Below, in pieces: positions 27,417-40,619 of a stretch of DNA of 64,000 nt. This stretch comes from Bauldia sp. (GTDB lineage: Bacteria; Pseudomonadota; Alphaproteobacteria; Rhizobiales; Kaistiaceae). The first letter of the stretch is position 1; the number at the start of each line of letters is the position of its first letter. Both the position numbers and the translations under genes were made by a program. The stretch is from contig DASRGK010000107.1 in assembly GCA_035651055.1 (NCBI GenBank), forward strand, positions 2,524 to 66,523, read 5' to 3'. The notes below the pieces were generated by a model that did not search any database, was not told the origin of the DNA, and saw only the letters and a list, made by a program, of their open reading frames with translations.

Positions 27417-27698
27417 TATTACCAATAGGCCACGAAATACGGCCGTACACAAGGCCTTCGGCGAAATGTCGCGTCCTTTCATCGGATGATTGTGGATGCT
27501 CCCTCGGGACCGGTCTGTCTGGCCTCGCCCGGACGGTAACGGCCCGCGCCTGGCCGGCTCCGGAGCGCGGGGCGCCCCAGGGCGGTGGAATGGGAGAACC
27601 GGGCCGCCGCCGATTCGCCCGGCTTCAGCCAGTTGTCAGGTCGGGTGTGCGAATCTGCCGGCGCGGTCGGGTTGACCGCGACGCCGGACCAAGCCCGC

Positions 27699-28427
27699 AT
27701 GAAGAAAGTTGCCCTGTCGCTGTTCGTGATTGCCGCCTCGGGCGCCTACGTCTGGAGCGAGGGTGGACGAGCCGCTCCCGACGATCCGCTTGCGGGCTCC
27801 GACGCCGCTCTACCCGCCGATCTGAAGCCGAGTGCCATCCCGGCCGCGACGCCGCCCGTCGCCGAACCGACGCCCCCCGAGGTTCTGCGAACGGGCGGCC
27901 CGCGCGCTCCGGATCGGCCTCTGCCCGAAAAGACGGCTGCCATTCTCGAAGCGGTGCGCGCCTCGGCTCCGCGGTTGGCCGCGACGATCACCCCTCCGGC
28001 GAGGGTTCCCCCGCCGGAGCCGACGCCAGTCGCGGCGGCGGAGCCGACGGTCCCGCTGCCGCGCCTGCGCCCCGCCTATCACGCGCCGCGGCTCGCGGCG
28101 GCAGTTATCCCGGCGTCAATGACGCTGGCCGCCAGCACCGCAGCCTATGCCGACGGCACCTATACCGGGCCGGTGGTCGACGCCTATTACGGCCTCGTCC
28201 AGATCCAGGCGATCGTCCAAGGCGGGCAGCTGGTCGGCATCAAGGTGCTGCAATATCCGTCCGACCGCCGCACCTCGGTGTTCATCAACCGGCAGGCCCT
28301 GCCGATGCTCCGCGACGAGGTGGTGAGCGCGCAGAGCGCCAATGTCGACATCGTCTCGGGCGCCACGCTCACCAGCGAGGCGTTCATCCGCTCGCTCTCG
28401 GGTGCGCTGCGGAAGGCGAAATCGTGA
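27699..28427 (+). CDS. Membrane-anchored FMN-binding-domain protein with ApbE flavinylation motif
   Basis: The ATG at 27699 gives MKKVALSLFVIAASGAYVW (anchor or signal). A long Pro/Ala-rich linker is followed by an FMN_bind-type domain ending in SANVDIVSGATLTSEAFIRSL. SGAT is encoded at 28356-28367. Confidence 0.75.
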   Translation: MKKVALSLFVIAASGAYVWSEGGRAAPDDPLAGSDAALPADLKPSAIPAATPPVAEPTPPEVLRTGGPRAPDRPLPEKTAAILEAVRASAPRLAATITPPARVPPPEPTPVAAAEPTVPLPRLRPAYHAPRLAAAVIPASMTLAASTAAYADGTYTGPVVDAYYGLVQIQAIVQGGQLVGIKVLQYPSDRRTSVFINRQALPMLRDEVVSAQSANVDIVSGATLTSEAFIRSLSGALRKAKS

Positions 28428-28430
28428 GCC

Positions 28431-29174
28431 ATGCGCGCCACCCGCATCCAGATGGGCATGCCGGTCACGGTGGAAGTGGTCGGTTCTGCCGACCCCGCCG
28501 TCTTTGACCGCGTGTTCGACTACTTCGACCGGATCGACCGGAAGTTCAGCACCTACCGGAGCGACAGCGAAATCTCTGCCATCAATGCCGGGGCGCTCGA
28601 CGAAGCCTCGATCACTGACGAGATGCGCGAAGTCCTTGCGCTCGCCGAGATCACCCGGGAGGAGACCGGCGGCTATTTCGACATCCGCACCCCCGAGGGG
28701 AAGCTCGACCCGTCCGGCATCGTCAAGGGCTGGGCGGTCCGCAATGCGGCGCTGCTCCTCGCCGATGCCGGGTTCGGCGACTTCTTCGTCGATGCCGGCG
28801 GCGACATCCAGTCCCGCGGGAAGAATGCCAGCCACACCGGCTGGACGATCGGCATCCGCAGCCCCTTCCGGGCCGAGGAAATCATCAAGGTCATCCGCCC
28901 GCAGGGCTCGGGGGTGGCGACCTCGGGCACCTATGTGCGCGGCCAGCACATCTACAATCCACACGCGCCGGCGCGCGCCATCGACGACATCGTCAGCCTG
29001 ACCGTTATCGCCGCCGACGTCTGCGAGGCCGACCGGTTCGCCACCGCCGCCTTCGCGATGGGGAGGGCCGGCATCGCCTTTCTCGAAAGCCGGCCGGGCG
29101 TCGAGGCCTATGCCGTCTGGCCCGACGGCCGCGCCACCATGACCAGCGGCTTCGAGGCTTTCGTCCCATGTTGA
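28431..29174 (+). CDS. apbE: ApbE-family FAD:protein FMN transferase (short form, no obvious signal peptide)
   Basis: 247 aa: MGMPVTVEV...FDRIDRKFSTYRSDSEISAIN...GGYFDI...LDPSGIVKGWA...VDAGGDI...VATSGTY. These are typical ApbE blocks. The start is 3 nt after the previous stop and in the same frame. Confidence 0.85.
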   Translation: MRATRIQMGMPVTVEVVGSADPAVFDRVFDYFDRIDRKFSTYRSDSEISAINAGALDEASITDEMREVLALAEITREETGGYFDIRTPEGKLDPSGIVKGWAVRNAALLLADAGFGDFFVDAGGDIQSRGKNASHTGWTIGIRSPFRAEEIIKVIRPQGSGVATSGTYVRGQHIYNPHAPARAIDDIVSLTVIAADVCEADRFATAAFAMGRAGIAFLESRPGVEAYAVWPDGRATMTSGFEAFVPC

Positions 29175-30676
29175 GACTGATCGACCGCCTGCTCGACCAC
29201 ATCACCATGTACCGCCTGGTGCTCGACTATCTGGTGGTCATCCTGGTAACGGCGCTGGTGCTGAGCCTCTTCGGGCTGGTTCCATTTCCTCCCGAGAATC
29301 TGGCGCTCTCGGCCGCCCTGATCTTCGCGACCTGCTGGCTTGCCAACCGGGTCTTCGCGGTCGTCTTCGCCATCCCGGCCAATATCGAATCGGCGACCAT
29401 CACCGCACTGATCCTTGCGCTCATCCTCGACCCGGTCGGCGTCGGCGACGTGAAGGGGATGGCCGGCCTCGCCTTCGCCTCGGTCTGGGCGATCGCGTCG
29501 AAATTCATCCTCGCCGTCCGCGGCAAGCACATCTTCAATCCGGCGGCGGCCGGCGCGTTTCTCGGCGGCCTGCTCCTCGATCAGCCGGCGACATGGTGGG
29601 TGGCCAATGCCGCCCTGCTCCCGGTCGTCCTCGCCGGCGGCATCCTGATCGTCCGCAAGACGCGGCAGAGCGAGCTGGTGGCCGCCTTCGCGCTGGTCAA
29701 TCTCGCCGCCGTGGTCGCGACTTCCTGGGGACCGCAGCTCGCGACGGCGCTCCGCGAGACCCTCCTCACCTCGCCGTTCTTCTTCTTCGCCTTCGCCATG
29801 CTGACCGAACCGCTCACCGCGCCGACCGGCCGCTGGCCGCGGCTCCTCTTCGCGGCGCTGGTCGGCTTCCTCGCTGCACCCGAGGTCCATGCCGGCAGCC
29901 TCTACTTCACGCCCGAACTGGCCCTCCTCATCGGCAACCTCTTCGCCTTCGCCATCGCCCCGCAGCGGCGGTTCATCCTCACGCTCGAGCGGATCGAGCA
30001 GACCGCGGCTGACACGTTCGACTTCGTCTTCCGCTCGCCGCACCGCGTCCGCTTCCAGCCGGGCCAGTATGTCGAGTTCACCCTGCCGGTGCCGAAGGCC
30101 GACAACCGCGGCAACCGGCGCTACTTCACCCTGGCTTCGTCGCCGGGCGAGCGGCGGCTGCGGCTCGGCGTCAAGTTCTATCCGGCGGCAAGCGCGTTCA
30201 AGCGCGCGCTGGCGGCAATGACGCCGGGCGACACGATCCACGCCGCCCAGGTCGCCGGCGACTTCACGCTGCCGCGCGACCGCGGCCGGAAGATCGCCTT
30301 CATTGCCGGCGGCATCGGGATCACGCCATTCCGCAGCATGATCCGGCACATGCTCGACAACCGGGAGGTCCGCCCGGTCACGATCCTCTATGCCGTCGAG
30401 CGGCAGCGCGACATCGCCTATCGCGACATCCTCGACGCCGCGGCGGACGAACTGGGGATCGCCACCTATTACGCCGTGGCCCGCGATCCCGGCCCCGACC
30501 AGTATCCGGGCTATGTCGACGCGCGGCTGCTGCAGGCGGCGCTGCCCGACTACCGCGAGCGCCTCTTCTACGTCTCGGGCCCGCAGCCGATGGTCCAGGC
30601 GATGCGCCGGCTCCTGCACCAGCTCGGCGTCCACCGCTCCCAGATCAAGGTCGACTTCTTCCCCGGCTTTGCCTAG
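29168..30676 (+). CDS. Fusion protein: RnfD/NqrB-like polytopic membrane domain + FNR-type FAD/NAD(P)H reductase domain
   Basis: The start overlaps the ApbE stop. The N-terminal ~265 aa carry HIFNPAAAG and FAFAMLTEPLTAP (compare NPFNPAM and FFILTDPVTAS in RnfD). The C-terminal part carries RRYFTLASSP (FAD RxYS/T motif) and AFIAGGIGITPFRSM (NAD-binding GGxGxxP). Confidence 0.75.
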   Translation: MLRLIDRLLDHITMYRLVLDYLVVILVTALVLSLFGLVPFPPENLALSAALIFATCWLANRVFAVVFAIPANIESATITALILALILDPVGVGDVKGMAGLAFASVWAIASKFILAVRGKHIFNPAAAGAFLGGLLLDQPATWWVANAALLPVVLAGGILIVRKTRQSELVAAFALVNLAAVVATSWGPQLATALRETLLTSPFFFFAFAMLTEPLTAPTGRWPRLLFAALVGFLAAPEVHAGSLYFTPELALLIGNLFAFAIAPQRRFILTLERIEQTAADTFDFVFRSPHRVRFQPGQYVEFTLPVPKADNRGNRRYFTLASSPGERRLRLGVKFYPAASAFKRALAAMTPGDTIHAAQVAGDFTLPRDRGRKIAFIAGGIGITPFRSMIRHMLDNREVRPVTILYAVERQRDIAYRDILDAAADELGIATYYAVARDPGPDQYPGYVDARLLQAALPDYRERLFYVSGPQPMVQAMRRLLHQLGVHRSQIKVDFFPGFA

Positions 30677-32037
30677 GCGGAAACCGCCGCGGCCGCGGGG
30701 CGCGGCAGGAAGACCGAGACCGACAGGCCGGGCCCGGCATCGGCAAGCGTAACCCTGCCGCCATAGGCATCGGCAATGTCGGCGACGATGGCGAGGCCGA
30801 GGCCGGTTCCCGACCCGGCCGTGTCGAGCCGCACGCCGCGGGCAAGCGCCGCCTGCCGCGCCTCCTCGGGAATCCCCGGCCCGTCGTCGCCGACCGCAAT
30901 CGTGGTTCCTTCGGTGGTGCTCTCGGCGCTTACCGTCAGCCGGGCGCGGGCAAAGCGGGCTGCGTTCTCCACGAGATTGCCGAGTATCTCGGCGAGGTCA
31001 TCCTCGTCGATGCTGGCCGTGACCGCAGGCGCCACATTGACCTCGATCGCCAGCCTCCGGCCGCCCGGCGTCCGCCGGACGACGTCGACCACCCGCGCGG
31101 CGACCTCGGCCACCGCGCATTCGCCGACGGCGACGCCCGGAGCGACGCGCGCCCGCGCCAGTTCGCGGTCGATGTGACGGCGAATGGCGCCGAGGCTCTT
31201 CTCGATCTCGCCCGCCAGGTCCGCCTCGCCCTTTGTCCGCAGGGCGCGGATCTCGCCCGAGATGACCTGGAGCGGGGTTTTCAGCCCGTGCGCCAGGTCG
31301 GTCGCCGCGGAGCGCGCGCGTTTCAGGGCCTTCTCCTGGGCTGCCAGCAGCCGGTTGATCTCGTCGACGAGCGGCCGCACCTCCTTCGGCGCATCGACCT
31401 CGAGGCGGGCGGCGCGCCGGCCGACGACCTCGCTGAGCGCGGCGCGGAGGCTCTCGAGCGGCGCGAGACCGATCGTCACCTGCGTAAAGATCGCCGCGAT
31501 CAGGACCAGTGCGAGGAGGATCAGCGCCGGCGCCAGTTCGGAGACATATTCATCGACCGAAACCTCGACGGCCCGGTGATCCTCGGCGACGATGGCGCGG
31601 AACGAGCGGCCGCCGGCGTCGGTGATCGTGCGCGCGGCGGCCACCAGCAGAGCCCCGCCGGGCCCGGTCAGCTCGGCCACCCGCACCCCGCCGCGCTCGC
31701 CGATCCGCCGCGTCGGCGCGAGCGTCGTATCCCAGAGCGAGCGCGACCGGATGACGGCCCCGCCTCCGTCGATTTCCTCGACCTGCCAGTAGAGACCGGA
31801 GAGTGGAACCGCGAAGCGCGGATCGGCGAGACCGGGCGTGACGGCGAGCCTGCCGTCGCTGTCGAAGGCCGTCGCGGCGACCAACTGGTTCAGTTCGACC
31901 GTCAGATCGGAGGCGATCCGCCGCTCGACATGGCGCTCGAAGAGGAAGCGCAGGCCGATGCCGGCGAGTCCAAGGGCGACGACGATCGAGATCGCGGCGG
32001 CCGACCAGAGCCTGAGGCGGATCGATCCGCCGCTCAT
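30673..32037 (-). CDS. Sensor histidine kinase (PhoQ/QseC-like architecture)
   Basis: The ATG at 32037 overlaps the response-regulator stop. The product MSGGSIRLRLWSAAAISIVVALGLAG has two TM segments, the H-box ATDLAHGLKTPL and the ATPase blocks NLVENAARFA and GTGLGLAIV. 454 aa. Confidence 0.85.
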   Translation of the reverse strand: MSGGSIRLRLWSAAAISIVVALGLAGIGLRFLFERHVERRIASDLTVELNQLVAATAFDSDGRLAVTPGLADPRFAVPLSGLYWQVEEIDGGGAVIRSRSLWDTTLAPTRRIGERGGVRVAELTGPGGALLVAAARTITDAGGRSFRAIVAEDHRAVEVSVDEYVSELAPALILLALVLIAAIFTQVTIGLAPLESLRAALSEVVGRRAARLEVDAPKEVRPLVDEINRLLAAQEKALKRARSAATDLAHGLKTPLQVISGEIRALRTKGEADLAGEIEKSLGAIRRHIDRELARARVAPGVAVGECAVAEVAARVVDVVRRTPGGRRLAIEVNVAPAVTASIDEDDLAEILGNLVENAARFARARLTVSAESTTEGTTIAVGDDGPGIPEEARQAALARGVRLDTAGSGTGLGLAIVADIADAYGGRVTLADAGPGLSVSVFLPRPAAAAVSA

Positions 32038-32699
32038 CCCTCGTCGCCCGGAACCAGATAGCCGAACCCGCGCCGCGTCTCGATCACCTTCGGACCGAGC
32101 TTCCGCCTGAGCCGCGCGACGATCACCTCGATCGTGTTGGGATCCTTGTCGTTGCCCGATTCGTAGAGATGCTCGGCAAGTTCGGTCGAGGGCACCACCC
32201 GGCCGCCGTGATGGATCAGAAACGACAGCAGCCGGTATTCGAGCGGCGACAGGGCGACCGGCAGGCCGTTGAGGGAGATCCGCATCTGCCGCGTATCGAG
32301 CGACAGCGGCCCCTGCCTCAGGACCGGCGCCGCCTGGCCGGCCGAACGGCGGAGCAGGGCGCGGAGCCGTGCGACCAGCTCCTCCATCTCGAACGGCTTC
32401 GGCAGGTAGTCGTCGGCGCCGGCATTGATGCCTTCGACCCGCTCGGTCCAGACACCCCGCGCCGTGAGGACCAGTACCGGGAAATTCCGGCCGGCGGAGC
32501 GCCAGCGCTTGAGCACGGTGAGCCCGTCGAGGCCGGGCAGGCCCAGATCGAGGACCACCGCGTCGTAGCTTTCCGTATCGCCCTTGAACCAGGCGTCCTC
32601 GCCGTGCCGCGATACATCCACGGCAAAGCCTGCGGCCCGCATCGCCGCAGCGATATCGGCCGCGATGCGGGGCTCGTCCTCGACGATCAGGACCTTCAC
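32034..32699 (-). CDS. OmpR-family response regulator
   Basis: MKVLIVEDEPRIAADI...DAVVLDLGLPGLDG... with a winged-helix C-terminus (RLRRKLGPKVIETRRGFGYLV). Confidence 0.9.
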   Translation of the reverse strand: MKVLIVEDEPRIAADIAAAMRAAGFAVDVSRHGEDAWFKGDTESYDAVVLDLGLPGLDGLTVLKRWRSAGRNFPVLVLTARGVWTERVEGINAGADDYLPKPFEMEELVARLRALLRRSAGQAAPVLRQGPLSLDTRQMRISLNGLPVALSPLEYRLLSFLIHHGGRVVPSTELAEHLYESGNDKDPNTIEVIVARLRRKLGPKVIETRRGFGYLVPGDEG

Positions 32700-33082
32700 G
32701 GCTCTCCCCGATTCTGTCCGCCGTCGTCGTCGCCTTCCCCGCCGGTGGCGGCGCCCGGCGGTCCGGCATCGAGGTCGACGGTCGCCCGCCGGCCGTCAGG
32801 TCCGACCACCTGGAACCGGTAAACCCAACGCCCGCCGACGCGAACCAGGTCCACCGCAACGACGTCGCCGGGCATGCGCCGCCCGAGCGCCGCCAGAATC
32901 TCGGAGAGCGGCAGAATTTCGCCGCGTTCGTAGAGATCGCGGGCGAGATCGTGATCGCTGTCGTCCTCAGCCGCAGCAGCAACCGGCAACGCGATGATTG
33001 TCGCCGCCAGCCAGCCCTTTATCCATCGCGTGCGCACGCGCCGGAATATAGCAGCGGTGCCTTGCATTTTGCTGGCAATCAT
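32696..33082 (-). CDS. PepSY-domain periplasmic protein
   Basis: 128 aa. A signal-like N-terminus is followed by ARDLYERGEILPLSEILAAL...VVAVDLVRVGGRWVYRFQVVGPDGR, typical of PepSY modules found upstream of two-component pairs. Confidence 0.65.
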   Translation of the reverse strand: MIASKMQGTAAIFRRVRTRWIKGWLAATIIALPVAAAAEDDSDHDLARDLYERGEILPLSEILAALGRRMPGDVVAVDLVRVGGRWVYRFQVVGPDGRRATVDLDAGPPGAATGGEGDDDGGQNRGEP

Positions 33083-33172
33083 ATCGCCGGTCGCACCGCG
33101 ACTGCCCTTGGCAGGCGTGCAATGGGTGGTATCCTGCCGGCGGGTTGTCTATCGCGAACCCCGTGGTGGGCG

Positions 33173-34060
33173 ATGACGCCGTGGTCGACGGGCCTGTCAA
33201 GACGGCGCGTTCTGCTGGCAGCCGCCGGCGCCGCGGCGGGCGGTCTTTTCCTGCGACAGACGGCCTGGGCGGTCGAGACGGAAGTTCCCCTCCGTTTCGG
33301 TATCCCGCAAATCCTGATCTCGCCGATGCTCGACGAGTTCGGTTGCATCGACCGCTATTTGCGCCTGCCATGGCGACGACCGGTAAGCCTCACCCAGCAC
33401 AAGACGAATGCGGAGCTTGCCGCAGACCTGCTCTCCGGCGAACTCGACCTGGCGTGGCTCAGCCCCTATGCGTATGTCCGCCGCCGTGAACAGCTTCAGG
33501 CGATAGCGGCTCCTCTCACGAAGGGGGCGGCAACCGCGCAATCCCTTCTCATCGTCGCCGCCGACCGGCCCGCTTCGATGCTCTCGGATCTCGCCGGAGA
33601 TACCCATGCCTTTGTCGACCCGGAGTCGGCGTCGGGCTTCCTCGTGACGGTCGCCGAACTTGCGAAAATCGGCACGCGGCCCGGCAGCTTCTTCAACCGG
33701 ACCTTCTTCACAAACGCCGATCGGAACGTGGTGAGAGCGGTCGCTGCCGGTCTCGCCGGGAGCGGGACGTGCGATGGCCATGTCTTTGAGGTTCTGAAGG
33801 AGATCGAGCCGCGGCTGACCGGAGCCGTGCGGGTTCTTTCGACGAGCTCGCCAATCGCGCCTCCGCCGATCGTGGCGAAGCGCGGGGGGCTTTCGGCGGC
33901 GGCGATGGCGGCCGCGAAATCCCTCTTCGTCGGAATGCGCACCACGGCTACCGGAGAGGCCGCTCTCGGAAAACTCCGACTGGACGGCTTCGCCGAAGCG
34001 GACGATGCGCTCTATGCGCCGATCACCGCAATGGCCGAGCGGCTTAAGGGTATCGTGTGA
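33173..34060 (+). CDS. PhnD/ABC-phosphonate-type periplasmic substrate-binding protein (no transporter partner), Tat-like signal
   Basis: MTPWSTGLSRRRVLLAAAGAAAGGLFLRQTAWA, then LRFGIPQIL...ELDLAWLSPYAYV...AFVDPESASGFL. An alternative start lies at 33122. The stop overlaps the kinase GTG. Confidence 0.65.
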   Translation: MTPWSTGLSRRRVLLAAAGAAAGGLFLRQTAWAVETEVPLRFGIPQILISPMLDEFGCIDRYLRLPWRRPVSLTQHKTNAELAADLLSGELDLAWLSPYAYVRRREQLQAIAAPLTKGAATAQSLLIVAADRPASMLSDLAGDTHAFVDPESASGFLVTVAELAKIGTRPGSFFNRTFFTNADRNVVRAVAAGLAGSGTCDGHVFEVLKEIEPRLTGAVRVLSTSSPIAPPPIVAKRGGLSAAAMAAAKSLFVGMRTTATGEAALGKLRLDGFAEADDALYAPITAMAERLKGIV

Positions 34061-35475
34061 TCCGCTCGCTCTCCACCCCGTGGACCCTGGCGGTCAAGGT
34101 CCCCGCGGCCATGGCAGCGGCTGTTGTGGTGATCGCGGCCGCAACCACCGCCCTTGTCTATCAGTTCGTCAGCACGGCCCAGGATCGCCAGCTGGCGAGC
34201 GTCACCCGCTCCTACCTCGACGGGCTGGCTCCGGCGCTCGTCGAGCCGGTCCTGCGGGGGGACATCTGGGGGGTGTTCGAGATCCTGGACCAACCTCGCT
34301 CCTTCTCGACGACCGCGATTCCGGTGGAGCTTGCCGTTGCCGATACGAGCGGCGAGGTGATAGCCGCCTCGGATCCACGCAAGGCGCCGAGCGGCGCTCC
34401 ATTGCCGGCTCGTTTTCGCAACGGAGCCGGCGGCGGAAGCCTTGTCAGGGACGATTCCGGAGAGGTGCTGTCGACCACCCTGATCGTGATCGGCGGCCGC
34501 AGCGTTGGCAGCCTGCATGTTCTCTGGGACATCACGCCGATGACGCAGGAGCGCCGGATGCTGATCCAAACCGCCGCCTTGTGGACGATCCTCGTTCCCG
34601 CGCTGGTCGGCCTCGCCGGCTGGTTCGCGACGCGGCGGATGATGCGGCCCGTGCAAATATTGTCGCGCCACATGGAGACGGCCGACGACGGTTCTGTCCA
34701 GCCGATCGGCGGCGCGGTGGTCAGGGCCGCGAGCCGCGAATTCGCCCGTCTCTACCGAAGCTTCAACACCATGGCCGGGGCGCTCGAGGCGCGTCGCGCG
34801 CTCACGGCGCGGCTTGTCGCCGAGGAGCGCCTGTCAAGCCTTGGCCGAATTGCGGCGGGTGTTGCCCACGAGATCAACAATCCTCTCGGCGGGCTTTTCG
34901 CAACCCTGCACATGCTGAAGACGGATCCCGCTTCACCGACGGTGCAACAGAAGGCAGTTGCGCTCCTCGAACGTGGGCTAGGGGGGATCCGGGACGTGGT
35001 GCGGGCGCTCCTCGCCATTCACCGGCCGGAACGCAACATGCGCCCGATCGCTGCCGCCGATTTCGACGACCTTCGTATCCTGATCGGTCCGCAGATCGGC
35101 AGTATTCGGCTGACATGGTCGATCGGTCCGCTCAACGGAGTCGATATCGCGGGCGGACCCGTCCGCCAGATGGTGCTCAATCTCCTTCTCAACGCACTCG
35201 CCGCGGCTGGCGAGAACGGCGATGTCGGCCTCACGGTCGCCGCCGCCCCGGACAAGGTGGTGATCACGGTGACCAATTCGGGGTCGGCCATGTCCGGTGA
35301 AATCGCGGCGTTTCTGGAAGGCAGAGGCACGGCGGACGTGCCGGGCGACGGTCTCGGCGTCTGGCTTGTCCGCCAGATCGCGGCCGAGCTCCGTGCCCGC
35401 GTCACGATACGAACCGGTACGGAGGGTACTTCGATCACCGTGATTATTCCGCGTCCGATCTCGGGTGCGACCTGA
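34057..35475 (+). CDS. Sensor histidine kinase
   Basis: 472 aa. Two TM segments flank a ~150-aa periplasmic region. H-box SLGRIAAGVAHEINNPLGG; ATPase blocks LLLNALAAA and GDGLGVWLV. Confidence 0.8.
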   Translation: MIRSLSTPWTLAVKVPAAMAAAVVVIAAATTALVYQFVSTAQDRQLASVTRSYLDGLAPALVEPVLRGDIWGVFEILDQPRSFSTTAIPVELAVADTSGEVIAASDPRKAPSGAPLPARFRNGAGGGSLVRDDSGEVLSTTLIVIGGRSVGSLHVLWDITPMTQERRMLIQTAALWTILVPALVGLAGWFATRRMMRPVQILSRHMETADDGSVQPIGGAVVRAASREFARLYRSFNTMAGALEARRALTARLVAEERLSSLGRIAAGVAHEINNPLGGLFATLHMLKTDPASPTVQQKAVALLERGLGGIRDVVRALLAIHRPERNMRPIAAADFDDLRILIGPQIGSIRLTWSIGPLNGVDIAGGPVRQMVLNLLLNALAAAGENGDVGLTVAAAPDKVVITVTNSGSAMSGEIAAFLEGRGTADVPGDGLGVWLVRQIAAELRARVTIRTGTEGTSITVIIPRPISGAT

Positions 35476-35476
35476 G

Positions 35477-36796
35477 ATGCTCGACGGCCGGCGCATCGGC
35501 ATTGTCGAGGATGATGCGGTCATGGGCGACGCGCTCGCGGAATGCTTCCGGCAGCGCGGCGCCGAGGTCGGTTTGTGGCGGAAGGGCAGCGACGCGCTCA
35601 CGGGTATCCGGAAATTCGCACCGGAGCTTGTCGTCTGCGACATCCGCCTGCCCGACCTTTCCGGCGAGCAGATATTCGCGGCCCTCAACGCCGACCTTCC
35701 TGCCGTGCCCTTCCTGTTCATAACCGGCCATGGCCGGATCGACGAGGCTGTCCGGCTTATCCGACTGGGCGCCGGCGACTACATCACCAAACCGTTCGAA
35801 ATTCCGCCCTTCCTCGAACGGGTGCGCGAACTCCTGCCGACAGGCGCTCCGGCGCGGCGCGACGTGCTCGGGCGCTCACCCGCGATCCGCGCCGTCGAAG
35901 CCACGCTCACGCGGGTTGCAGCGATCCGTTCGACCGTGCTGCTCCTCGGCGAGACAGGATCGGGCAAGGAGGTTGCAGCCCGCTTCCTCCACGATACCGG
36001 CCGGCCCGGCACGCCCTTCGTCGCCGTCAATTGCGCTGCCTTTCCTCCCGATCTGCTGGAATCGGAACTGTTCGGTCACGAACGCGGCGCCTTTACCGGC
36101 GCCGCGGGCAGGCACATCGGGCATGCTGAACGCGCCGGCGACGGAACCCTATTCCTCGACGAGATCGCCGAACTGCGCCCCGCCCTCCAGGCGAAGCTCC
36201 TCCGCCTTCTCGACGAGCGCCGTTTCACCCGCATCGGCGGGGACCGACCGCTCCAATTCAGCGCCCGCGTGGTCGCTGCGACCAATGCCGACCTCGCCCG
36301 CCGCGTCGAGAAAGGCGATTTTCGTCAGGACCTGCTTTTCCGGCTCGACGTGGTCTCCATACGGATCCCGCCGCTCCGCGACCGCACGGAGGACATTCTC
36401 CCGCTGATGGAACGGTTCATGAGCCAATATTGCCGGGAGTTCGGGACGTCGATCCGGCGCTTCGAGCCGGCAGCCGTGACCGCCGCGCTCCGCCACACCT
36501 GGCCCGGCAACGTTCGGGAACTCCGCAATCGCGTCGAACGAGCCGTCGCCTTGTCCGAAAGCCCGGTGCTCGCCGTCGCCGATCTCTTTCCGAGCGAGGG
36601 CGCCGAAGACGCCGCGGAATCGGTCACTCGAAACCTCTCGGCCGTGCGCGCGGCCGCCGAACGGGAAGAGATTTCCGGAGCGCTTGCCGCCAGCGGCGGC
36701 CGCATCCTCGCGGCCGCGAAGCAGTTGGGAATTTCACGGACGACGCTCTGGAAGAAGATGCGCCGGTTGAACCTCCGCGGGTCGGCCCTGCCCTGA
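35477..36796 (+). CDS. Sigma54-dependent enhancer-binding response regulator (NtrC family)
   Basis: Receiver domain (MLDGRRIGIVEDD...VVCDIRLPDLSG). AAA+ domain with GETGSGKE, ESELFGHERGAFTGA (GAFTGA at 36086-36103) and GTLFLDEI. C-terminal Fis-type HTH AAKQLGISRTTLWKKMRRL. An alternative GTG start lies at 35465. Confidence 0.9.
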   Translation: MLDGRRIGIVEDDAVMGDALAECFRQRGAEVGLWRKGSDALTGIRKFAPELVVCDIRLPDLSGEQIFAALNADLPAVPFLFITGHGRIDEAVRLIRLGAGDYITKPFEIPPFLERVRELLPTGAPARRDVLGRSPAIRAVEATLTRVAAIRSTVLLLGETGSGKEVAARFLHDTGRPGTPFVAVNCAAFPPDLLESELFGHERGAFTGAAGRHIGHAERAGDGTLFLDEIAELRPALQAKLLRLLDERRFTRIGGDRPLQFSARVVAATNADLARRVEKGDFRQDLLFRLDVVSIRIPPLRDRTEDILPLMERFMSQYCREFGTSIRRFEPAAVTAALRHTWPGNVRELRNRVERAVALSESPVLAVADLFPSEGAEDAAESVTRNLSAVRAAAEREEISGALAASGGRILAAAKQLGISRTTLWKKMRRLNLRGSALP

Positions 36797-39469: not shown

Positions 39470-39590
39470 AACATGAAGGCCTGGTGATTTTTATAGAGAA
39501 GAGACTGCGCTGAACGTGGTCCGCGCTCGACTTGGACCTCGGTCCCGAAAGAAATCTGTCAGCCGCCTGAAACGTCAATCCTGGGGAGGA

Positions 39591-40619
39591 ATGGCAATGA
39601 GCGACGAAGAACGGTCGGGAGCCGACCGACGCAATTTTCTGAAAACCTCGCTGCTGGGAACCGCTGCCGTTGCCAGTGGGATCGGCGGCCTCTTCGGCCG
39701 GTTCAATCCGTCAACCGGCGCGCTGGAAGTATCCTCGGCGCGAGCCGACACGCGGCTGAAGATGGCGTTCGTGCAGTTTCAGCCGCATACGGTTTCGACC
39801 GCGTGGGGCAAGGGGATCGCCGAGGTGCTGGCCACCCAGCAGATCGTCGACTACGACCAGCTCGACGGCCAGGCCAAACTCGAAGTCCAAGTCAGCCTGA
39901 TGGACACCCTGATCAGCCAGGGCGTCAACGTGATCTTCCTGCAGCCGGTGGACAGCGTCGGAGTTGCGCCGTCGATCGCCAAGGCGAAGCGCGCGGGCAT
40001 CGCGGTCATCACGCTCAACATCGACGCTACCGAGCCGCATGCGGCCCATGTCGAGATGAACCACTATTTCGGCGCCATGGACATCGCCAAAGCGATGGGC
40101 GACGCGATGGGCGGCAAGGGGAAAGTGGCGATCCTCAATGCCCCTCCGGGCATCATCATCCGCGACCAGCGCACGAACGGCTTCACCGACGGCCTCAAGA
40201 AGTATCACCCGGACATCCAGGTGGTCTCCGACCAGGTCGCGGACTGGGATCGCAAGAAGGCCCAGGACGTGCTGACCACGGTCCTTGCCGCCAACCCGGA
40301 CATTACCGGCGTCTACGGCGTCAACGATTCCATGGCCTTGGGCGCCATGGACGTCGCCAAGGACAAGGGCCTCAAGCTGGTGATCTTCGGCAATGACGGC
40401 GAGAAGGCGGCGCTTGAGGCGATCGAAGCCGGCGACATGACCGGCACGCAATACACGGACGTCTTCCAGCAGGGACGCCTCGCGGCCGCGGTCGCCACGG
40501 TGTTGGCGTCCGGCGGCGTGTCGGCCAAGGCCTTCGCGTCGCAGGGTCACCTGTTGATGCCCTATATCATCGCGACCAAAGACACGGTCGGACAGATACA
40601 GCCCTCCCAGCGTTGGTAA
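39591..40619 (+). CDS. Periplasmic sugar-binding protein, CUT2 type, Tat signal
   Basis: The ATG follows GGGGAGGA. The N-terminus is MAMSDEERSGADRRNFLKTSLLGTAAVASG. The body has a type-I binding fold. Confidence 0.85.
   Translation: MAMSDEERSGADRRNFLKTSLLGTAAVASGIGGLFGRFNPSTGALEVSSARADTRLKMAFVQFQPHTVSTAWGKGIAEVLATQQIVDYDQLDGQAKLEVQVSLMDTLISQGVNVIFLQPVDSVGVAPSIAKAKRAGIAVITLNIDATEPHAAHVEMNHYFGAMDIAKAMGDAMGGKGKVAILNAPPGIIIRDQRTNGFTDGLKKYHPDIQVVSDQVADWDRKKAQDVLTTVLAANPDITGVYGVNDSMALGAMDVAKDKGLKLVIFGNDGEKAALEAIEAGDMTGTQYTDVFQQGRLAAAVATVLASGGVSAKAFASQGHLLMPYIIATKDTVGQIQPSQRW

Follow-up and report, generated by a model that had tools for sequence, protein, structure and literature searches.

In a stretch of 64,000 nucleotides (nt) from Bauldia sp. 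(GCA_035651055.1, DASRGK010000107.1, positions 2,524-66,523; this whole stretch is called the window in the following), the genes at 27699-30676 encode a membrane-anchored protein that binds flavin mononucleotide (FMN), a flavin adenine dinucleotide (FAD):protein FMN transferase of the ApbE type and a fusion of an RnfD/NqrB-fold membrane domain with an FNR-type module. As judged from its sequence, this trio is a member of the NQR/RNF-like systems, a class described as flavinylation-associated gene clusters with a PF03116-PF00175 fusion (Méheust et al., 2021, eLife, PMC8238504), and it probably constitutes a two-subunit NQR/RNF-like transmembrane electron-transfer complex together with its own flavin transferase. 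The central idea is already in print; what is new here is the size of the family, an ApbE that lacks an export signal in nearly all loci examined, and a neighbouring operon encoding a PepSY-domain protein, a response regulator and a histidine kinase (PepSY-RR-HK operon) that in relatives shares a candidate promoter box with the trio.

Gene organization and class assignment

The three genes of the trio are the following, with protein lengths in amino acids (aa).

27699-28427, plus strand: g1, anchored FMN-binding protein of 242 aa, the RnfG/NqrC-type partner
28431-29174, plus strand: g2, short FAD:protein FMN transferase (ApbE) of 247 aa
29168-30676, plus strand: g3, fusion of 502 aa with an RnfD/NqrB-fold membrane domain and an FNR-type NAD(P)H/FAD module

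The stop codon of g1 (TGA, 28425-28427) is followed after a gap of 3 nt by the ATG of g2, and g2 and g3 have 7 nt (ATGTTGA) in common, which agrees with an earlier note, made from the letters of the window, that had described three translationally coupled genes. The motifs cited in this note were all found at the positions given there. The same tight operon coupling of the trio is present in the loci of relatives, and the G+C content of the trio is unremarkable compared to its flanks. All four expected Pfam families score above their gathering cut-offs, namely FMN_bind in g1 (29.5 bits versus 22), ApbE in g2 (PF02424, 144.6 bits versus 25.6) and, within g3, NQR2_RnfD_RnfE (PF03116, 32.0 bits versus 27.7) and NAD_binding_1 (PF00175, 68.5 bits versus 22). 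As the TGA of g1 and the ATG of g2 are in frame in the window, a read-through fusion of g1 and ApbE, which would be exported, was considered; it was rejected since the frame is not conserved, the gap between g1 and g2 being 3 or 4 nt among relatives.

The trio agrees with the published class in every sequence feature by which the latter is recognized: PF03116 forms an N-terminal membrane domain on the same polypeptide as PF00175, the FMN_bind and ApbE genes of a flavinylation-associated cluster lie directly upstream in the same operon, and the membrane domain of g3 is devoid of the conserved Thr. An electron flow that starts at NAD(P)H and leads in one direction to an FMN outside the cytosol, as it is proposed here for the trio, was already put forward for the class (PMC8238504, PMC11334425), and an AlphaFold-multimer model was reported in which the transmembrane domain lacks the flavinylation site of NqrB/RnfD and the flavin of the partner comes near a non-covalent flavin site (Huang et al., 2024, mSystems, PMC11334425). 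The suggestion of the earlier note, a compact conduit from NAD(P)H to the periplasm that differs from both Rnf and Nqr, coincides with this published model. The note had named no characterised homolog; a named counterpart class does exist, although a biochemical characterisation of any NQR/RNF-like member was not found in a literature search.

The membrane domain of g3 and its lost flavin site

Two domains are distinguished in g3.

29168-29980, plus strand: N-terminal domain of g3 (residues 1-271), polytopic with an RnfD/NqrB fold
29969-30676, plus strand: C-terminal domain of g3 (approximately residues 268-502), FNR-type FAD barrel and NAD(P)H domain

Several lines of evidence place the N-terminal domain of g3 in the RnfD/NqrB family. 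The match to PF03116 covers residues 153-263, and with it the profile search that had been suggested for placing the domain in this family gave a positive outcome. The domain contains the motifs HIFNPAAAG (29528-29554), TSPF (29768-29779) and FAFAMLTEPLTAP (29786-29824). A single-sequence search with the membrane domain against PDB sequences gave no match; a profile built from 34 diverse family members matched RnfD of A. vinelandii (8ahx_D) with an E-value of 4e-6, and hhalign returned a probability of 93.8% against E. coli RsxD over g3 residues 68-260. An AlphaFold2 (AF2) model of residues 1-271, calculated with 34 diverse sequences, reached a pLDDT of 95.3 and a pTM of 0.92. In a Foldseek search with this domain model the top 15 PDB matches were RnfD/NqrB chains only (probability 1.0, TMq 0.58-0.73), and the matches outside RnfD/NqrB, among them the urea transporters as next structural neighbours, all had E-values above 0.4. 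The AF2 model of full-length g3, which was based on 19 close relatives, showed a pLDDT of 71.5 and its fold search was swamped by FNR matches. Pfam, the profile search, hhalign and AF2/Foldseek thereby converge on the 502-aa fusion of an RnfD/NqrB-like and an FNR part that had been read from the sequence before.

It had been claimed that the covalent FMN of E. coli RsxD is attached to an SGAT motif just before FFILTDPVT and that g3 lost its site at the equivalent position. RsxD indeed reads LLSGATMLGAFFILTDPVT, and hhalign aligns its LLSGAT279MLGAFFILTDPVT with LLTSPFFFFAFAMLTEPLT of g3, but T279 is part of a look-alike and not of the covalent-FMN site: the ApbE-type motif of RsxD is DGISQAT187, and RnfD of A. 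vinelandii has SGGL at the position of the look-alike SGAT. Backiel et al. in 2008 reportedly assigned the site to T187 of RnfD. In RnfD of C. tetanomorphum, FMN is bound to Thr153, which lies in an external five-helix linker between transmembrane helices (TM) V (126-136) and VI (188-201) (PMC9588780); the location of the RsxD site is taken here from the motif in RsxD and from this structure paper. According to hhalign, the segment with DGISQAT187 is a 78-residue insertion present in RsxD only, with no counterpart in g3, and in the AF2 model of g3 the helices that correspond to TM V and VI are only 10 residues apart. By inspection, no [ST]GA[ST] motif is present in the sequence of g3. The loss of the attachment site from the membrane domain is thus correct, while the proposed route is not, because the whole 78-residue loop is absent and SGAT was not mutated to TSPF. 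As the lost loop is lid-like, the outer flavin pocket should be open.

Canonical Rnf and Nqr complexes carry two covalent FMNs, one on RnfD/NqrB and one on RnfG/NqrC. The idea that the flavin site was moved from the membrane domain to a separate protein does not hold: nothing was moved, because the RnfG/NqrC-type partner, here g1, always had a site of its own, which it keeps, and only the one of the membrane domain was lost.

In public databases g3 and its relatives are named 'RnfABCDGE type electron transport complex subunit D', 'ferredoxin-NADP reductase' or 'NqrB', and a protein identical to g3 is on record from a metagenome-assembled genome of Bauldia sp. under the first of these names. 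None of the names fits the fusion or its context. If g3 belonged to a conventional Rnf complex as its subunit D, in line with the annotation, this would agree with the match to PF03116; however, g3 scores 21.2 bits with the NCBIfam profile for RnfD, which has a cut-off of 207, the loop that carries the covalent FMN on a Thr of the canonical D/B subunit is missing, and g3 possesses an FNR fusion that Rnf lacks. In addition, the Rnf/Nqr partner genes (RnfA/E, NqrD/E, RnfB/C, NqrA/F) are all missing from the 10 kb on either side of the trio on the source contig, and the same is true of the 8 kb examined in Mesorhizobium sp. INR15. The annotation as Rnf subunit D is refuted by gene context, NCBIfam score, missing loop and FNR fusion, and it is almost certainly wrong.

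The FNR module of g3

In the C-terminal part of g3, NAD_binding_1 covers residues 378-480, residues 268-498 align with flavohaemoprotein, BenC and NqrF in NCBIfam, and the PDB profile and Foldseek matches comprise flavohaemoglobin, benzoate dioxygenase reductase, NqrF and cytochrome b5 reductase. The motifs RRYFTLASSP (30116-30145) and GGIGITPF (30308-30331) harbour R318-Y-F-T321 and G381-GIGITP387, which lie in columns that are invariant among 19 relatives and which correspond to the FNR motifs R-x-[YF]-[ST] for FAD and G-G-x-G-x-x-P for NAD(P)H. An Fe-S domain is absent from this module.

The anchored FMN-binding protein g1

The flavinylation motif of g1 is located as follows.

28347-28367, plus strand: ApbE flavinylation motif D217-I-V-S-G-A-T223 of g1, with Thr223 (codon 28365-28367) as predicted FMN-phosphoester acceptor

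At its N-terminus g1 carries a hydrophobic anchor or signal (MKKVALSLFVIAASGAYVW), which is followed by a Pro/Ala-rich tether of approximately residues 26-147 (residues 26-165 contain 33 Ala and 29 Pro among 140) and by the FMN_bind domain at the C-terminus (residues 148-242). The motif D217-IVSGA-T223 is an exact match to the published target consensus of ApbE, D-x-x-[S/T]-G-A-[S/T] (PMC12052999). With SGAT at 28356-28367, DIVSGATLT at 28347-28373 and the Pfam match, the anchored protein with a Pro/Ala linker and an FMN_bind domain is found as the earlier note had described it. Residues 154-240 align with a solved FMN-binding domain (8p2a, E 3.9e-12), with DAVSGAT in register with DIVSGAT, and among 79 g1 homologues adjoining relatives of g3, 78 carry [D/N/S]xxSGA[T/S], which begins with D in 69 of them. 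Public gene calls start g1 at GTG 27585 (280 aa); the start used here, ATG 27699 (242 aa), was chosen because the N-terminal MK[KQ][IV]ALSLFVIAASGAYVW is conserved in relatives. In g1 and its relatives KK or KQ, and not RR, precedes the conserved hydrophobic segment, and the flanking charges point to an N-in/C-out orientation.

The ApbE g2 and the place of flavinylation

From residue 7 on, g2 reads QMGMPVTV, which aligns with TMGSTYTV of 5mgy, the first residues of the mature ApbE fold, and the Pfam score given above bears out the earlier identification of this 247-aa protein as ApbE. In comparison with 4xgw and 5mgy, the motifs K-G-[YW]-A, ATSG-Y, H-x-x-[DN]-P and EAD-x-x-T are kept, which count as the catalytic and FAD/Mg motifs of ApbE (cf. 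PMC12052999). The open reading frame (ORF) of g2 begins 6 residues before the conserved fold, and neither a signal peptide nor a lipobox was found by hydropathy and inspection, the approach used for all signal-peptide calls. There is no room for a signal peptide, because the stop codon of g1 3 nt upstream closes the ORF. The maximal ApbE ORF has 245-249 aa in 62 of 73 related loci, those of Patescibacteria included, and in three distant members (L087-L089) ApbE starts directly at the fold with an N-terminus that is not hydrophobic. ApbE is typically periplasmic and membrane-anchored (PMC12052999), and the accessible text of the papers on NQR/RNF-like systems contains no remark on a cognate ApbE missing its signal peptide (PMC8238504, PMC11334425). 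An ApbE without export signal that serves a target predicted to be exported thus poses a puzzle, for which flavinylation in the cytoplasm prior to export, an unrecognised export route or an FMN domain facing the cytoplasm are possible solutions.

In the first of these, g2 would work in the cytoplasm and would modify Thr223 of g1 before the latter is exported post-translationally by Sec, or by Tat in some lineages. This would account for ORFs that leave no room for a signal peptide in g2, in the 62 loci and in the three distant members alike. ApbE was reported to flavinylate tags of 7 residues, best at termini, and cytoplasmic ApbEs exist (PMC12052999); the motif of g1 is placed 19 residues from its C-terminus. 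Moreover, the FMN_bind partner in a distant high-G+C member (L089, 1505-2167) begins with MSRRTTTRYLIGAIAGLAIVG, which looks like a twin-arginine signal, and such a Tat-like start would fit flavinylation in the cytoplasm before export. On the other side, g1 and its relatives have KK/KQ instead of RR together with charges that indicate N-in/C-out, and the signal-peptide calls derive from hydropathy and inspection only. Sec export of a flavinylated chain is not known for any ApbE target. Flavinylation of g1 before export appears unlikely, and the variant in which the FMN_bind domain lies on the cytoplasmic face and links FAD of the FNR module to the flavin of the membrane domain is less likely still. 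It is equally doubtful that the family as a whole works by a cytoplasmic transferase, an FMN attachment before export (via Sec here and via Tat in some Actinobacteria-like members) and a tethered domain that shuttles from the open RnfD-like pocket to remote acceptors in the envelope under control of the PepSY system. If true, pre-export flavinylation would remove the need to export FAD, and it may explain why the module was retained in the genome-reduced Patescibacteria.

Proposed electron transfer

Domain identities, fold, flavinylation motif, the missing loop, the coupling of the genes and their conservation are shown by the present analysis. For the trio as an outward-directed electron-transfer complex with its own transferase, we infer all of the following steps. 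NAD(P)H would donate its electrons to the FAD that the FNR module of g3 binds on the cytoplasmic side, as expected from the family of this module, and electrons would then pass singly through a flavin held in the RnfD/NqrB-fold domain. Proteins of the RnfD/NqrB family bind riboflavin near the cytoplasmic face and have an FMN pocket near the outer face. The open, lid-less pocket of g3 would be visited by the FMN that is attached to Thr223 of g1 by g2, as was proposed by Huang et al. (2024). The reduced FMN_bind domain would finally swing on its tether of approximately 120 residues toward a periplasmic or extracellular acceptor, with ferric iron or another oxidised envelope substrate as the leading guess. 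Iron is suggested because of associations with VIT1 in the literature; such associations are absent at this locus, where no VIT1 transporter is encoded near the trio.

A number of observations weigh against this scheme. The Asp of the TDP motif in RnfD, which was proposed to contribute to the binding of Na+ and riboflavin (PMC9588780), is Glu in g3 (TEP), and the second, non-covalent flavin in the membrane domain of g3 is a predicted one. A conserved gene for an acceptor or redox partner was not found near the trio, neither in Alphaproteobacteria nor in Patescibacteria. Furthermore, a cognate ApbE without export signal misfits a simple periplasmic flavinylation of a target domain that is predicted to lie outside.

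A different function would result if the module were a minimal redox-driven Na+ or H+ translocator, in which the RnfD/NqrB-like domain keeps a proposed cation path. RnfD and NqrB are related to urea and ammonium transporters, and one Na+ path with Asn124 and Asp248 as key residues was proposed (PMC9588780, PMC12174285); g3 keeps the Asn of the FNPA motif (N124, invariant) as well as an acidic side chain in the place of the Asp of TDP (E214, conserved in at least 90%), and urea transporters are its next structural neighbours. However, Asn124 and Asp248 were matched to residues of g3 by motif and numbering and not by structural superposition, the RnfA/E (NqrD/E) pair that forms the ion path in other models is absent, and the electron flow through g3 would be one-way and electrogenic by itself. 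An ion-translocating function is considered very unlikely. Comprising two proteins where Rnf and Nqr have six, the class would form the smallest relative of these respiratory machines known so far, and it would represent a flavin-only transmembrane electron route that could be useful for studying flavin and ion handling by RnfD/NqrB.

Comparison with related systems

The membrane domain of g3 has the same fold as RnfD of the Rnf complexes (7zc6, 8ahx, RsxD; TMq up to 0.73), with FNPA and T(D/E)P in common, and RnfG (RsxG) resembles g1 as its N-terminus forms a helix and its FMN domain at the C-terminus is flavinylated by ApbE on a Thr. In contrast to Rnf, the trio lacks RnfA, B, C and E, and the external linker of five helices, in which RnfD is flavinylated on a Thr (Thr153 of C. 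tetanomorphum, T187 of RsxD), is missing from g3, which carries the C-terminal FNR module. The electron path of Rnf is U-shaped, whereas that of the trio is proposed to be directed one-way outward. With Na+-NQR (V. cholerae, 7xk3 and 8a1t) the trio shares the NqrB fold, an NqrC-like FMN partner and an NqrF-like entry with FAD and NADH; it differs in that the NqrB-like and NqrF-like parts form a direct fusion and in that the 2Fe-2S domain of NqrF, NqrD/E, NqrA, the quinone site and the Thr236 site of NqrB are absent.

NOX/FRE-type and MsrQ-like reductases, such as NOX from S. pneumoniae (8qt6), are functional analogues, as they combine a cytoplasmic FNR part, fused or coupled, which matches structurally, with an outward membrane wire. 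This wire is built from two b-haems in a ferric-reductase fold, whereas g3 is predicted to use a flavin in an RnfD fold, and the membrane parts are not homologous. Multi-flavinylated proteins (8p2a, 8p2b; PMC10339131) contain a tandem array of FMN-binding domains, while g1 has one domain, a membrane anchor and a long tether.

Family size and conservation

A search with the membrane domain of g3 alone resulted in 1,455 clusters at 50% identity, 345 of them at E <= 1e-30; most clusters have a length of around 500 aa, which points to fusion proteins. In a collection with one genome per species, at least 580 stretches encode relatives. The family is hence much larger than the 127 NQR/RNF-like clusters, 'primarily Actinobacteria and candidate phyla radiation', that are given in the original description (PMC8238504), compared to which the trio represents a lineage of the Hyphomicrobiales that comprises Bauldia, Mesorhizobium, Kaistia and their relatives. 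This lineage adds to the class the tether of approximately 120 residues and the convergent PepSY-RR-HK operon with the shared box. As Mesorhizobium is culturable, its version of the module would be a tractable genetic system.

The 80 loci that were kept represent genera such as Mesorhizobium, Bauldia, Kaistia, Devosia, Phyllobacterium and Manganibacter, and relatives are also present in many Patescibacteria. The trio is conserved across Hyphomicrobiales, and the order FMN_bind, ApbE and fusion is kept in essentially all of the approximately 65 alphaproteobacterial loci, so that the conservation as a unit, which the earlier note had proposed to survey, was observed. In Patescibacteria the FMN_bind gene lies directly 5' of the fusion, with ApbE adjacent or nearby. 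The fusions of Alphaproteobacteria and those of Paceibacterota, Adlerbacteria, Kaiserbacteria, Parcubacteria and Saccharibacteria (L065-L086) are 48-55% identical over their full length, which suggests a transfer of the module between phyla.

Clustering of the neighbouring genes revealed no redox partner: in 13 loci of Patescibacteria only an ABC exporter recurs (five loci), and in 19 alphaproteobacterial loci without a two-component system a pair of a CHASE2 cyclase and a FecR-domain protein was found (eight and six loci). The CHASE2 adenylate/guanylate cyclase is encoded near the trio, mostly directly downstream, in L017, L030, L031, L037, L038, L040, L042 and L045, and the FecR-domain protein adjoins it in six of these eight loci. 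A second FMN_bind gene is present upstream in some of the CHASE2 loci and in L015.

The convergent PepSY-RR-HK operon and a candidate promoter box

Downstream of g3, an operon on the opposite strand encodes a two-component system, and a box-like sequence precedes g1.

30673-32037, minus strand: PhoQ/PmrB-like sensor histidine kinase (HisKA, HATPase_c, HAMP_PhoQ), convergent with g3
32034-32699, minus strand: OmpR-family response regulator (Response_reg and Trans_reg_C; best matches PmrA, QseB and TctD)
32696-33082, minus strand: small exported protein with a PepSY domain, encoded by the first gene of the PepSY-RR-HK operon
27623-27639, plus strand: degenerate box copy CTTCAGCCAGTTGTCAG, candidate response-regulator site, with its downstream edge 60 nt upstream of the g1 start

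The 3' ends of g3 and of the histidine kinase gene overlap by 4 nt with their stop codons (30673-30676), and the corresponding gaps in relatives amount to only around 7 nt, which leaves the convergent operons without intergenic space for terminators. The response regulator scores 196 bits with the NCBIfam profile of PmrA and 195 bits with that of QseB, both below the equivalog cut-offs. The PepSY protein reaches 23.8 bits with Pfam PepSY, just below the gathering cut-off of 24, and it has homologues at the same position in relatives with E-values of 1e-15 to 1e-34. The operon adjoins the trio in 43 of the 67 alphaproteobacterial loci; distant members are flanked by unrelated, non-orthologous two-component systems.

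The box TGWCAG-N5-TGWCAG has 94 exact hits, counted on both strands, in 1.09 Mb of loci, compared to 0-1 in dinucleotide shuffles. Of the 67 alphaproteobacterial loci, 48 have an exact copy at a distance of approximately 60-100 nt on the upstream side of the FMN_bind gene, and 17 of the 43 loci with the PepSY gene have one at the start region of the latter. The loci with the box are related by descent, yet the half-sites are held while the spacers vary. A period of 11 bp, as in this box, is typical of regulators of the OmpR/PhoB type. In this lineage, the expression of the trio is probably controlled by the adjacent PepSY/PmrA-like system through the box. Two points tell against such a control: the box is degenerate on both sides in the window, where on the side of g1 only the half-site TGTCAG (27634-27639) is perfect and on the PepSY side only one half-site, TGACAG (33194-33199), is present, and the box upstream of g1 is also kept in loci without a neighbouring two-component system. 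As both boxes of the window are degenerate, the role of the adjacent regulator is one that we infer. The candidate regulator and the box could serve in a search for the inducing signal and thus for the acceptor.

The box resembles Pho boxes (7+4+7), and loosely the TGA-N9-TCA box of rhizobial RirA, although the spacing is N10 here. The PepSY-RR-HK operon might be akin to feuNPQ of rhizobia, for which one paper gave neither a binding motif nor a link.

In around 10 Mesorhizobium loci a further copy of the box is located approximately 0.75 kb beyond the PepSY gene, in or near a DUF2231 gene. Within the window, a box-like site on the minus strand (TTTCAGGCGGCTGACAG, 39540-39556) lies around 45 nt upstream of the ORF of a Tat-signal periplasmic sugar-binding protein (39516-40619); it is probably due to chance, because approximately 0.1 such sites are expected per window. 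Just beyond the PepSY gene, a further set of signalling genes, unrelated to the first, is found at 33122-36796 (coordinates derived from gene calls on the source contig); it comprises a periplasmic protein of the phosphonate-binding type, a histidine kinase and a sigma-54-dependent response regulator.

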